58,404 bases of DNA from Pseudomonadota bacterium (GTDB lineage Bacteria > Bdellovibrionota > Bdellovibrionia > Bdellovibrionales > SG-bin7), in the NCBI GenBank assembly GCA_034439715.1, contig JAWXAY010000052.1:1-58404 (forward strand), given 5' to 3'. Shown piece by piece: positions 42,001-45,000 of this stretch. The position numbers were made by a program. Positions within the stretch are counted from its first letter, which is position 1. Every line of letters starts with the position of its first letter.

Positions 42001-45000
42001 GGGGAGTGATTTTAATAGGAATTTAACAGACCAATTTACCAAAGAGGCCTTGCATATGTCAGGGGTCCGATTTTCGCGTGAGGCACCAGAACACTTTGTG
42101 GCTGGATTTAGAGATATAAAACAGGTACGCACGTTTTTTTCAAATCTAGATGGTCTCTTTAAGAGTACGGCAAAAAAATTGGAAAGAAAACTCGTCTTAC
42201 GGTCTCGGACGTGTATGGGCCAGTTTGGATCATAATTTCAAACCGCGAATTCCAAGATAAAATCTTTTGAAAACTTCGGAACACGAGATTGATATGGATA
42301 TTATTAAAAAAGACTTGGAGTAACTTCAGTGTCCGCAATCAATTTGACATTTCTGCTAATAGTTCTTGTTCATCAACACAGCCTCGCCTCTGAAATATCC
42401 CCTCGAAGATGCGCAGATGTTTTTTCGCCTGTACTGATGCTAAATAGACCCGTTACTATACCCGATTCCTATGAACTACCCAACGGACGAAAACACTCTA
42501 AGTACAAAAAATTTATTTCTGAAATTTCGGAACTACGCGATAAAATTAACCTCCTGACAGAAGGCAAACTAAATCAGGTAGAGTCAGTAATTTACCCCGC
42601 AGCAGGCTTTGACTCTGGCTACCCCTTTTTGATGGCACCAAAGGCAAAGGTGGTAATCGCTCTTGATGATAATCCATTTATAACCCAGAAAAATTTTAAG
42701 CTCGAAACTTCACTAAAACCTGTGCAACCCTATGGGTATGCATCATATATGCATTTCTCGGCTATAGTAAGCTTGCCCGGATTGGCAAACCAAATTGTAG
42801 CCAATATCAAAGGACTCGACAAAAACATAAGAATTCGTTCTGTCGAGGCATTTATGATCCAAGGAGAATCTAAATATATGGAGGCTCAGGACGAGCACAT
42901 ACCTATTCATGGTTTGGTGAAATTTGATCGGGGTGACGGGACTCCAGAGCAGATCTATATTCACGTGAATAGATTTTTTTCTTCTCTTGAACCCTCTACC
43001 GTTACTATATTGCAAAGTTCGTGGTGGAGCGGAATGATCTCAAGTAGACGAATGGCTCTACTCTACAAAGGGGCAGCAGGAATAACAGGAGAATCGACAA
43101 TAGATGCGTTAGAGCAAATTTTTGCAAAAACCCCCGGCTCCGTTTATGTTGCCGCGAAAAATGAGGCTACCGTTAGATTTCTGAGCCGTTCAGACCATGT
43201 TCTAGTTCCCTTAGAAGAATCTAAAAGAGGATATAAAGAAGTTCTCATGCCTTATTTTCAAGATCCTAAATTAAAGAAATATAAAGTTCGTGCTAGGTTA
43301 GGCTACAATTCCATTGGCGGCAGGAAGGGTTGGGTCGACATCGTTATCGTACCTGAGAACTCCGATATCTTTGAATAAATCAGGGGTCATTAACTAGATT
43401 TTTTCATTTGGAATGATCGCAGGCGCTTTCAATATCAACAACTGAATCATTACGATGTATTGATAATGCTTGCGGCTCAAGCGCGATGTCGTCAGATGAT
43501 GGCCGCTTAAGAATTTCATCTAAATCGGCTCTTAACTCTGCTGCTTCTACTTCTTTAAATGGTTGATTATCGAGTATGGCATTTAACCAAGCGGCTAAGC
43601 GAAATCCGGCTTGTAATACTCTTTCGTTTAAAGGATCAATACTCTTTTCAAAATAGGCCTCATTGGACCCATCCTTCCCTTTGTAAGTGGTGCCCCGGCT
43701 GCTTAGCGATTCATTGAGCCATGTCATAATATATGAGCTTTGCCATTTTGTTATTTCATTCTGACTAGGTTTACGTAGGTTTCTAAAATATTCCATGCCT
43801 GTTGGTTGTGGGGGCTTTTTTTCTTGCATCTGAAACGAAGGGTTCAAGAATGTACTAATTAGATGGGTATCCCACACTGCATGTAGATTTGTTTTGTTAC
43901 CATGCCATGACATATCTATGGAGTTTCCTCCCTTATCCTCGGCCACACCAACATGTAGTGGTTGATGCAAATCTCCTATAAAGTGAACTAGAAAACGTAA
44001 AGCGTCGGCTTTGGCCTTTCGGGAACCTTTGGGACTTCTCAAAACATCTTCTGCCTTTATAAGCGCTCTTACGATATCGCCTGCTTCTTGCTCAGAACTT
44101 GAAAGCGAATCTAAGGCGGAATAGTAATCATTTTTATTTGGGATACTGACATAATGATAGGGGCGCGTGTGCGGCCAATTACTGGAATATTTAATCTGGT
44201 CTGGCCATAGACTTGCCTGGGCTAGGTCTTCGCCGCTTTTTAACAAAGTCTTAATTCTTGCTTTTGCGACTCGGTTGAGGTTTTTTTCAGCAATAATACC
44301 AATGGCCTCGTGACCAGGAATTCCCCAAGAGAAAGCTGAAGCGGCATAGAAAAATACCAAGAAAGTGCAGATAAAAAAACGCATTGAACCCCCAAATAGA
44401 CCGGCATTTTCGGCGCCGGGTAGAAACATCGAACCAATTATCGATTTATATCTGGATACATAAAAAGCGTATTAAGAAACCGCGCTTAATTCTACAAAAA
44501 TCTTTTAAATTTTATTTACTGATACTCTGCAGCGAGTGGGGTTTAGATTTCGAATATGGCAGAAAATGGGCAATGAGTTTTTAGTTTATGACAAGCATTT
44601 TTTAGAAAACTCAATTGGGACGCAGTTGTGCACATTTGTGCATTTATAAATCGACCATATTCGAGTAAATTCTTCTGAATAAAGGAGAAATATATGAGAA
44701 CTAGTCAAATTTTATTTTTTATTTCGACCACCTTAATGAGTTGTTTGGCCATAGCGGAACTCGACACCTATTATTGCACGACCGAATGTAGATATATCAC
44801 TACGGAAGAGAGAACTTTTTGGCCAGATATTGAATCCGTCCAGACCGATGAAGTGACGGGGTCATCAAAAGATCTCAACCAAGCATACCAAACTATGAAC
44901 GACAAGTGTCCTGGAAATATTTCTCCCAATTATAGAAGCAAAAAAGCTTATAGGTATGAAGAGCAAACAAAGAAACGCCATCTTTGTCGGAAACACGCAC

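Follow-up and report, generated by a model that had tools for sequence, protein, structure and literature searches.

The xpt-pbuX guanine riboswitch of Bacillus subtilis (RF00167) has a separate terminator/anti-terminator platform and controls genes for purine salvage and transport, while the add riboswitch of Vibrio vulnificus is an adenine-sensing (U74) ON switch whose downstream platform holds the Shine-Dalgarno (SD) sequence and which controls adenosine deaminase. Guanine-I riboswitches are defined, in PMC9295807, by the ligand-contacting residues U22, U51 and C74 (C74 for guanine, U74 for adenine) and by the absence of junction insertions; the same C74 and U74 specificities are given in PMC6847200. 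The 2´-dG-II riboswitches have C51 (a 'UCC' first shell) and a 2-nt insertion in J3/1 and are selective for 2´-deoxyguanosine (PMC6847200), and only 12 members, all metagenomic, have been described (PMC5473149). In PMC8872408 this class is attributed to Bacteroidetes and is reported upstream of genes for endonuclease I, ComEC and phospholipase D; that a riboswitch of the purine family can stand before DNase genes has already been published there for the 2´-dG-II class. For Bdellovibrio bacteriovorus HD100, Lambert & Sockett 2013 (PMC3593177) describe three signal-peptide-bearing Endonuclease_1 genes (bd0934, bd1244 and bd3507), with bd1244 expression peaking 30-45 min after prey contact, and the word "riboswitch" occurs zero times in that paper. 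Apart from the 2´-dG-II statement, a full-text literature search returned no paper, on Bdellovibrio or any other organism, in which nucleases are tied to a guanine or other purine riboswitch, and the words "nuclease" and "Bdellovibrio" occur zero times in the main text of Sun et al. 2013 (PMC3766115).

The window analyzed here, a whole stretch of 58,404 nt from a Bdellovibrionales assembly (G000; 3.26 Mb, 95.7% complete), carries on its minus strand a guanine-I riboswitch that probably switches off translation of a monocistronic gene, which encodes a putatively secreted S1/P1 nuclease. The features of the locus are as follows.

44377..44473, minus strand: guanine-I (RF00167) aptamer, full length (cmscan, 58.0 bits)
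44449..44456, minus strand: 5´ strand of P1, UCCAGAUA (Rfam structure line; 8 contiguous standard pairs with 44398-44391)
44446..44448, minus strand: J1/2, UAA (U22, A23, A24), with U22 at 44448 (Rfam alignment and direct reading)
44428..44445, minus strand: P2-L2-P2 hairpin, AUCGAU-AAUUGG-UUCGAU (P2 covariation, 96 copies)
44420..44427, minus strand: J2/3, GUUUCUAC (U47, U48, U49, C50, U51, A52, C53), without insertion (Rfam alignment)
44401..44419, minus strand: P3-L3-P3 hairpin, CCGGCG-CCGAAAA-UGCCGG (98.1% of cells paired, 96 copies)
44399..44400, minus strand: J3/1, UC, with nt 73 = U (44400) and C74, the guanine specificity base, at 44399; without the 2-nt insertion
44391..44398, minus strand: 3´ strand of P1, UAUUUGGG (Rfam alignment and direct reading)
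44389..44393, minus strand: SD-like GGGGG, of which the first three G's (44393-44391) belong to P1 (direct reading)
44382..44384, minus strand: nuclease start codon ATG (direct reading; mature-chain alignment)
44328..44384, minus strand: signal-peptide-like N-terminus, 19 residues, MRFFICTFLVFFYAASAFS (boundary from mature-chain alignment)
43572..44327, minus strand: S1/P1 nuclease domain, residues 20-271 (Pfam PF02265)
43404..43571, minus strand: C-terminal extension of 55 residues without family match, plus stop codon (ORF reading and Pfam)

The aptamer scored 58.0 bits against a gathering threshold of 37 (E 2e-07), aligned over model positions 1-102 of 102 with no non-canonical pairs flagged, and was the only RF00167 match in the assembly. 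This agrees with the initial annotation, which had described a full-length element of 58 bits, the sole purine riboswitch of the genome, with C at the specificity position. The pocket residues U22, U51 and C74 can all be read directly, in a junction with a J2/3 of 8 nt (U47 = 44426, U51 = 44422, A52 = 44421) and a J3/1 of 2 nt. L2 is one nucleotide below the family consensus length and retains GG, and L3 retains CC; these are the candidate nucleotides for the L2-L3 loop-loop contact. Nucleotide 73 is U rather than the highly conserved A of the family consensus. U22, U51 and C74 together with the lack of junction insertions fit the guanine-I definition in PMC9295807, and by its pocket the element is a canonical guanine-type (guanine-I) aptamer. 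Membership of the 2´-dG-II class was rejected given U51 at 44422 in place of C51 and a J3/1 that consists of UC only, and membership of xanthine-II and guanine-II was rejected given a J2/3 and J3/1 without insertions.

The longest ORF at the locus opens at an ATG at 44429, within the aptamer. Read from 44384, the ORF gives the 19-residue N-terminus followed by WGIPGHE, and W20 aligns with the first residue of the mature chain in the solved S1/P1 nucleases 3w52, 5fb9, 3sng and 1ak0. The alignment speaks for 44384 as the actual start, as had been proposed when the called start was noticed inside the aptamer, and for a signal peptide of 19 residues. The N-terminus is hydrophobic and ends in A-F-S before W20, consistent with a putative signal peptide as judged from sequence and alignment. 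The Pfam S1-P1_nuclease (PF02265) match is strong (3.9e-59, 201 bits against a cut-off of 29.5, profile positions 1-257 of 258), phmmer against the PDB finds Arabidopsis ENDO2 at 1.5e-31, and alignment to solved S1/P1 nucleases reveals the conserved blocks WG..GHE, LW.D, P.HY, HF.GD.HQPLH and NLH..WD, whose His and Asp residues are presumably the zinc ligands. The gene from 44384 thus encodes an S1/P1 nuclease, putatively secreted, and the earlier description of a signal-peptide-bearing S1/P1 enzyme behind the aptamer is borne out. As a point against such a switch, the aptamer was found at only two of the 50 places with an S1/P1 homologue in the order; the two other S1/P1 paralogues of the same genome are without it, as is the closest homologue (45% identity, genome G021).

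Across the order, RF00167 was detected in 57 of 151 genomes, in 93 copies including the one described here, and 88 of the 93 precede a secreted nuclease or nuclease-like gene. The first downstream gene encodes a small secreted HNH-motif protein in 51 cases, Endonuclease_1 in 22, Exo_endo_phos in nine, a PD-(D/E)xK-like secreted protein in four and S1/P1 in two; five copies precede an EamA transporter gene, and these use another leader design, probably ON, in the same genomes. The 11 further copies in the phylum outside the order all stand before secreted nuclease-type genes (10 before the HNH-motif family, one before Exo_endo_phos), and the copies in Bdellovibrionota number at least 104. The riboswitch is therefore normally paired with a secreted nuclease, both within the order and in the phylum beyond it, in line on this larger sample with the 17 of 19 further copies reported at the outset. 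The nuclease families had been described as three others, all unrelated; they are indeed unrelated, but we count four or five in all. None of the 93 copies precedes a purine-synthesis gene, so the description of the riboswitch as "re-purposed" away from purine synthesis is fair. As also reported, relatives at the family level lack the element, with RF00167 in none of the three other genomes of the family. We also carried out a pattern scan over all phyla, which gave at least 120 matches against chance matches estimated in the thousands; among the matches listed, the DNA of 80 loci was taken, 10 of these passed a structural filter and 11 of 20 loci submitted to Rfam were confirmed, which says little about whether the nuclease wiring is confined to the phylum.

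Two of the downstream families are less certain as nucleases. The HNH-motif family (154-216 aa, in 90 of the 151 genomes of the order) is mostly unnamed by Pfam, with HNH or HNH_5 at E <= 0.001 in eight of the 51 proteins and above the curated cut-off in one. HNH (His-Me finger) nucleases have a beta-beta-alpha-metal motif with catalytic His and Asn residues. The HNH motif is present in all 51, D87, H88, N98 and N102 do not vary among 30 aligned proteins of the family, and an AF2 model (pLDDT 82.6) has a strand-strand-helix element at 84-126. A Foldseek search with this model gave nothing significant, the top matches all being HNH enzymes (best E 0.14). PD-(D/E)xK nucleases have a restriction-endonuclease-like fold with a D...(D/E)xK motif. 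For the four PD-(D/E)xK-like proteins (190-195 aa), D78 and E94-V95-K96 are invariant, Pfam gave only sub-threshold NERD, HSDR_N_2 and DUF234, and the AF2 model, built from four sequences, reached pLDDT 80.3; Foldseek placed MspJI (7.7e-4), BstEII, EcoT38I, NucC and EndoMS on top, with TM only ~0.3.

The gene content also bears on the ligand, since the same architecture could respond physiologically to something other than guanine, a purine derivative that is a more direct readout of nucleic-acid breakdown, such as 2´-deoxyguanosine, guanosine, xanthine or hypoxanthine alone. The 2´-dG-II riboswitches share the fold and, in PMC8872408, precede the DNA-related genes named above, so that a nucleoside signal would fit the genes found here. 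U73 occurs in 31 of the 93 copies, the S1/P1-linked one at 44377-44473 included, J1/2 reads UAUAU in 28 of 93, and guanine-family variants with changed specificity are known (PMC9295807). Against this, the first-shell residues U22, U51 and C74 are those of guanine-I, without the C51 or 2-nt J3/1 insertion of 2´-dG-II (PMC6847200) and without the J2/3 and J3/1 insertions of xanthine-II or guanine-II (PMC9295807). The J2/3 sequence GUUUCUAC is moreover identical in 80 of 93 copies, and all 93 have C74. We consider a different ligand unlikely.

The position of the ribosome-binding site can be read directly. P1 forms 8 contiguous pairs that include three of the five SD G's, its last pair lies 6 nt from the ATG, and the spacer between GGGGG and the ATG at 44384 is 4 nt (UUCA). 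The aptamer had been said to sit directly on the nuclease ribosome-binding site with a 5-nt spacer; the position is correct, the spacer one nucleotide shorter. In all 88 non-transporter copies, an SD-like purine 4-mer begins 3-8 nt past U75 and the start codon follows 11-19 nt past U75, and with this distance no separate expression platform, terminator or anti-terminator fits. The compact geometry would thus leave room for direct translational control only. A transcription-termination mechanism was rejected, as P1 and the ATG are just 6 nt apart. In a scan of 43200-44800, the terminator-like site at 44419-44401 proved to be the P3 hairpin, and promoter prediction over the same interval was of no help, with 4 promoter-like sites where 4.4 were expected and none on the minus strand upstream of the aptamer. 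The 14 sequencing runs listed for 43404-44700 are all DNA metagenomes. The minimum free energy (MFE) structure of the leader includes the aptamer, with a z-score of -0.45, a value at which single-sequence folding has no discriminating power.

Comparison of 96 copies was more informative. P2 and P3 have compensatory changes at all 11 pairs, with 97.2% and 98.1% of cells paired, respectively. For P1, 77.3% of cells are paired, with double changes at 6 of 8 pairs. In slid-partner controls 31-41% of cells are paired. Pairs 3-5 of P1 covary (23, 34 and 33 double changes of 96), and an A-U to C-G switch occurs exactly where the 3´ strand goes from UAUUUGG to UAUGGAGG. Between 28 and 54 of the 96 rows lack pairing at the distal P1 positions, and P1 is absent from the RNAalifold consensus of the aptamer copies. 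For the SD itself, the first two bases are both paired in register in 49 of 88 copies (5-44 in shifted registers), and in-register pairing is modestly above that in shifted registers (2.49 vs 1.55-2.38). The contiguous P1 pair count breaks at single mismatches and was therefore dropped as a family measure in favor of duplexfold with a shuffle null. By this measure P1 together with the SD forms weak duplexes (median -5.4 kcal/mol, 88 copies), as expected for a ligand-dependent helix. Bulge-tolerant pairing of the SD was no better than with a shuffled distal 5´ strand (2.7 vs 2.6 of 4 nt), duplex energies were close to those of composition-matched shuffles (-5.39 vs -5.04 kcal/mol; only 5 of the 88 copies do better than 95 of 100 shuffles), and the energy of the 44377-44473 copy was reached by 16 of 100 shuffles. 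Sequence-specific SD pairing across the family is thus unsupported by this analysis, which counts against an SD-occlusion mechanism.

These shuffle results, P1 helices that are short or interrupted in many copies, and the other, probably ON, design of the five EamA-linked leaders in the same genomes would all be compatible with a functional aptamer that acts other than by covering the SD, through mRNA decay, Rho-dependent termination inside the ORF or a ligand-induced ON response. However, the 11-19 nt from U75 to the start codon (88 of 88) put a ligand-stabilized P1 within the 30S footprint, MFE and centroid folds contain no alternative helix that sequesters the SD in the ligand-free state only, and any decay or Rho effect would come after the block in translation and have the same polarity; we regard such a mechanism as quite improbable. 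A decaying relic or chance match that does not regulate the nuclease, as might be supposed from the three family genomes without the element and the aptamer-less closest homologue, is very hard to reconcile with a score 21 bits over the curated cut-off, an intact set of pocket residues, strong compensatory covariation over 96 copies and a position relative to SD and ATG that is conserved in 88 of 88.

In the translational OFF switch, the nature of the ligand, the polarity (OFF) and the physiology of the feedback are our inference, and the following sequence of events can be envisaged. P1 closed by ligand would hold the first SD G's and end 6 nt before the AUG, such that loading of the 30S subunit is blocked and nuclease output stays low. 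With a low purine-base pool the weak P1 would open, and the nuclease would be translated and exported to break down extracellular or prey nucleic acid. The breakdown products, salvaged by PNP and HGPRT, could then raise guanine and close the loop. The genome has HGPRTase at two places over the cut-off and PNP_UDP_1 at four. As points against the scheme, the UshA-type 5´-nucleotidase domain was not found in it, and the presence of purF indicates that the organism is not auxotrophic and not obliged to scavenge purines, and the supposed purine hunger would not be that of an auxotroph. Taken at face value, the pattern suggests that nucleic-acid scavenging may be adjusted to purine supply across the Bdellovibrio phylum.

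A bolder reading, which we hold only tentatively and at somewhat under even chances when its parts are taken jointly, is that the aptamer and SD form a portable cassette of ~90 nt that has been grafted repeatedly before at least four, probably five, unrelated secreted nuclease families (HNH-like, Endonuclease I, EEP, S1/P1 and PD-(D/E)xK-like) and that classical purine genes have lost. Guanine would act as the satiety signal at which the digestion of nucleic acid from prey or the environment stops, and the copy at 44377-44473 would be a recent re-grafting, as its core is 89% identical to that of a copy preceding an EEP nuclease in a different family of the order and its own family mates lack the element. 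If this is true, a phylum best known for predators uses a well-understood riboswitch for extracellular nuclease output instead of purine synthesis or uptake, with a simple feedback rule for how the cells meter their breakdown of DNA and RNA from prey or the environment. The locus would then also be a naturally occurring guanine OFF switch of minimal, platform-less form that works in Gram-negative cells, the pattern would be a clear example of exchange of an aptamer-SD module between unrelated genes, and the 154-216-aa family present in 90 of 151 genomes would gain a likely function as a secreted nuclease.

Compared with the known systems, the element shares with xpt-pbuX the three-way junction, the U22/U47/U51/A52/C74 pocket, the GG of L2 and CC of L3 as candidate loop-loop contacts and a P1 predicted to be stabilized by ligand, but it has no platform, its SD is part of or adjoins P1, U73 replaces A and the gene encodes a putatively secreted nuclease; with this layout, control would have to be translational. 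Action on translation initiation rather than transcription termination is a property of the purine-family add riboswitch of V. vulnificus, while the present element is of the C74 guanine type, is without a downstream platform and precedes a nuclease gene. The platform-less translational layout itself recurs in a Tissierellia MAG (Bacillota; locus L204, RF00167 50.1 bits), where GGAG and ATG follow P1 immediately, although the gene downstream there encodes IMP dehydrogenase (Pfam IMPDH 1.9e-149), an enzyme of classical purine metabolism. The predator B. bacteriovorus HD100, which degrades prey DNA, likewise has signal-peptide-bearing Endonuclease_1 genes (PMC3593177). The 2´-dG-II riboswitches belong to the same fold family and, in that the enzymes downstream of them act on DNA (PMC8872408), provide the nearest published precedent for a breakdown product that represses a nuclease; the copies described here differ from them in having U51 and no insertion, in numbering at least 104 in Bdellovibrionota and in preceding four or five nuclease families.

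A purine riboswitch aptamer, a textbook class, covers positions 44377-44473 on the minus strand as a full-length RF00167 match (cmscan score 58.0 bits, gathering score 37, E 2e-07; positions 1-102 of 102 in the model covered, all modelled pairs canonical) and is the sole RF00167 match of the window's own genome, G000 (3.26 Mb, 111 contigs, 95.7% complete). Using the window sequence and the family numbering, we assigned the following parts:

44456-44449, minus strand: P1 5' strand, UCCAGAUA
44448-44446, minus strand: J1/2, UAA, with U22 at 44448
44445-44428, minus strand: P2/L2
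44427-44420, minus strand: J2/3, GUUUCUAC, with U51 at 44422
44419-44401, minus strand: P3/L3
44400-44399, minus strand: J3/1, UC, with C74 at 44399
44398-44391, minus strand: P1 3' strand, UAUUUGGG
44393-44389, minus strand: Shine-Dalgarno (SD)-like GGGGG, its first three G's being G's of the P1 3' strand
44384, minus strand: ATG of the nuclease gene, preceded by a UUCA spacer

The longest ORF starts inside the aptamer, at 44429, upstream of the ATG at 44384. The ORF from 44384 encodes an N-terminal hydrophobic leader of 19 residues followed by WGIPGHE, matches the whole Pfam S1-P1_nuclease profile (3.9e-59), and has its W20 aligned with mature-chain residue 1 in four solved S1/P1 nucleases. 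The riboswitch, its single occurrence in the genome, the start codon and the nuclease gene are thus as described in the initial annotation, except that the spacer between SD and ATG is 4 nt rather than the 5 nt given there. Since the ORFs on both sides (42329-43378 and 44694-45320, both plus strand) run on the opposite strand, the nuclease gene is monocistronic. The window also holds a tRNA gene (RF00005, 34720-34793, plus strand, 67.5 bits) and a 595-aa ORF (45557-47344, plus strand) with many Cys-motif repeats (C..GYYYD....C-like), whose C-terminal third is very rich in proline.

Across 151 sampled genomes of the order Bdellovibrionales, RF00167 was detected at 93 places in 57 genomes (47 of 124 high-quality genomes; 27 of 69 genera), including 30 of 31 genomes in one family and 13 of 31 in another, and was not found in the three other genomes of the window's own family. 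For all 93 places, with no row left out, DNA was obtained and oriented and the first downstream ORF was called; the products were scanned with Pfam and then clustered by BLASTP. One cluster of 154-216-aa signal-peptide proteins with an invariant DH.(I/F)PL..GG(S/A)N...N motif follows 51 of the copies (49 genomes), and Pfam assigned another 22 downstream genes to Endonuclease_1. Exo_endo_phos genes follow nine copies (two clusters, of six and three), S1-P1 genes two (the window gene and one in another genome of the order, G131), a single cluster of secreted 190-195-aa proteins without a Pfam match four, and EamA transporter genes five (four via Pfam, one truncated member via clustering). No purine-biosynthesis or phosphoribosyltransferase gene was among these 93 first downstream genes, and by a crude hydrophobic-stretch rule the N-terminus was signal-peptide-like (for EamA, membrane) in 92 of the 93 products. 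Counting Pfam-supported families only, 33 are nucleases; with two probable families the number is 88. A phylum-level sample of 151 genomes had RF00167 in 24, of which 11 lie outside the order and carry a single copy apiece; the leader was the same in all 11, before HNH-motif proteins in ten and Exo_endo_phos in one. The claim that this riboswitch mostly precedes secreted nucleases of unrelated families therefore holds for 88/93 copies in the order, two of the families being probable, and for 11/11 elsewhere in the phylum.

Pfam HNH or HNH_5 matched eight of the 51 HNH-motif proteins at E <= 0.001, one exceeding the curated cut-off. D87, H88, N98 and N102 are invariant in 30 aligned members, an AF2 model (pLDDT 82.6) places a strand-strand-helix element at the site of the invariant residues, and the top Foldseek matches of this model were all HNH enzymes, none significant (best E 0.14). 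For the 190-aa family, in which D78 and E94-x-K96 are invariant, Pfam gave only sub-threshold matches to NERD, HSDR_N_2 and DUF234, and a four-sequence model (pLDDT 80.3) gave marginally scoring structure matches, nearly all to nucleases of the restriction-endonuclease fold (MspJI 7.7e-4, TM about 0.3). Both families are probable nucleases. Members of 190-196 aa (L009:1588-2157, L024:926-1510, L031:1636-2208, L062:1625-2209, L152:734-1303 and L207:716-1303, each named by its riboswitch locus) share an invariant GELD...(A/G)EVKCWKD pattern, and probably form an undescribed secreted PD-(D/E)xK nuclease family.

Homologues of the S1/P1 enzyme occur at 50 places in 36 of the 151 genomes, with the aptamer at two only; when the 19 best non-self homologue loci were scanned with Rfam, one had it, that of G131, whose enzyme is just 34% identical to that of the window. 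The closest homologue (G021, 45% identity) lacks the aptamer, as do both paralogues in G000 (C26:13840-14616, minus strand, a match with an in-frame TAG; C42:9185-9736, plus strand), each 35% identical to the window enzyme. The HNH-motif family occupies 111 places in 90 of the 151 genomes. All 51 riboswitch-linked genes rank among its 56 best-scoring places, and about 55 lower-scoring places across the order are without an aptamer. This suggests two paralogous subfamilies that differ in regulation, though the scoring model derives from linked members and favours them. The aptamer core nearest to that of the window (89% identity) precedes an Exo_endo_phos gene in another family of the order. 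This match and the absence of the aptamer from the window's family mates suggest that an aptamer-SD module may pass from one nuclease gene to another, or that its downstream gene may be replaced.

The ligand contacts of guanine-I riboswitches are U22, U51 and C74, while xanthine-II and guanine-II carry insertions in J2-3 and J3-1 (both from PMC9295807). All three contacts are present in the window aptamer and the junction insertions are absent; by all sequence-testable features it is therefore guanine-I. The 2'-dG-II class is defined by C51 and a two-nucleotide J3/1 insertion (excerpt of PMC6847200), whereas the window aptamer has U51 and a J3/1 without insertion. At nucleotide 73 (window position 44400; column 102 of the copy alignment A3) the window aptamer departs from the Rfam consensus, in which A is highly conserved, and has U; among the 93 copies of the order this nucleotide is U in 31, G in two and C in one. 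J1/2 reads UAUAU, not UAUAA, in 28 of the 93. Such variants might modulate affinity or specificity.

Measured from U75, each of the 88 non-transporter copies has an SD-like purine 4-mer beginning 3-8 nt downstream and a start codon 11-19 nt downstream (49-54 nt in the five transporter copies). Neither a terminator nor an anti-sequestering helix would fit into so short a stretch, so the nuclease leaders can only control translation initiation directly. OFF polarity would be expected since ligand binding stabilises P1: the ligand-bound aptamer, with P1 stabilised, would turn off translation initiation of the nuclease gene. We assessed pairing in an alignment of 96 distinct copies with P1 in the window's register. 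P1 cells were 77.3% paired, with 23, 34 and 33 double changes at pairs 3-5, and P1 changes from A-U to C-G exactly where the 3' strand switches from UAUUUGG... to UAUGGAGG...; the whole structure was 89.1% paired versus 31-41% with slid partners. The first two SD bases were both paired in 49 of 88 copies in register versus 5-44 in shifted registers, and an unbroken helix runs from U75 into the SD in 34 of 88, the window's included. The mean number of SD bases paired, of four, was 2.49 in register versus 1.55-2.38 shifted, a comparison counted against SD pairing. When bulges were tolerated, SD pairing was not above that with the distal 5' strand shuffled (2.7 versus 2.6), with near-equal duplex energies (-5.39 versus -5.04 kcal/mol), and P1 was not in the RNAalifold consensus. 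The overlap in position between SD and P1 is thus robust. In roughly half of the copies, the window's included, one or two G's at the start of the SD genuinely belong to P1; the evidence for SD base pairing is mixed, and specific pairing that would sequester the SD as a whole is putative.

The five copies before EamA genes (L043, L072, L076, L080 and L091) have the J2/3 GUCUCUAC (U48C), unlike the nuclease-linked copies, and their leaders fold into a hairpin in which the SD/start region is paired with the segment just 3' of P1. This predicted fold would suit a ligand-induced ON switch of a purine exporter, opposite in polarity to the nuclease leaders of the same genomes.

G000 encodes purF (519 bits), and de novo purine synthesis is probably intact, so the purine "hunger" earlier proposed to set nuclease output cannot mean auxotrophy. 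Two HGPRTase and four PNP_UDP_1 genes provide a route from nucleosides through guanine to GMP; a 5_nucleotid_C domain was not found in this 95.7%-complete genome. Searches of G000 for the HNH-motif family and for Endonuclease_1 gave no match, so the S1/P1 enzyme may take their place. Among the sequencing runs listed, the locus was present in DNA metagenomes only, labelled microbial mat.

A scan of one genome per species for junction-CTA-GGAG-N5-ATG returned at least 120 stretches, 80 with DNA, and was dominated by chance matches; among the matches listed, 10 of 80 passed a structural filter and Rfam confirmed 11 of 20 loci tested. Eight confirmed copies among these listed matches precede nuclease-like genes (six HNH-motif, two D..ExK-motif), all in records titled Bdellovibrio sp., Bdellovibrionales bacterium or unclassified Deltaproteobacteria/Proteobacteria MAGs; they were not added to our counts, and some may equal loci already counted. 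Two Bacillus-type matches were ordinary riboswitches with long leaders and a chance ATG. The matches listed weakly support phylum specificity of the nuclease wiring.

Collectively, the finding is real and its initial reading largely right, as to the guanine-I class, the overlap with the SD, the S1/P1 gene and the recurrence before nucleases. The window carries a guanine-I riboswitch without an expression platform, which probably acts as an OFF switch for translation of a probably secreted S1/P1 nuclease. It belongs to a regulon that spans the phylum, with one and the same leader in front of four (supported by Pfam or motif) to five unrelated families of nucleases. A full-text literature search returned no link between a guanine or purine riboswitch and a nuclease in Bdellovibrio or any organism, though Singh & Sengupta 2012 and Weinberg et al. 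2017 may list such genes. In the available portions of each source, "riboswitch" has no occurrence in a Bdellovibrio nuclease paper (PMC3593177), "purine" and "guanine" none in a transcriptome paper (PMC3627812), and "nuclease" and "Bdellovibrio" none in a regulon survey (PMC3766115).

What is new is the use and the layout of a known switch, not the kind of switch. The 2'-dG-II class, with 12 members, all metagenomic (PMC5473149), is a published precedent for a purine-family riboswitch before DNA-degrading enzymes, its downstream genes including endonuclease I, ComEC and phospholipase D (excerpt of PMC8872408). The platform-less translational design appears in Bacillota as well, before a classical purine gene: in a Tissierellia MAG from the pattern scan (locus L204), a compact guanine riboswitch with GGAG and ATG directly after P1 precedes a gene for IMP dehydrogenase (1.9e-149 to Pfam IMPDH). 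Its compact design is that of the window leader, which is followed by a nuclease.
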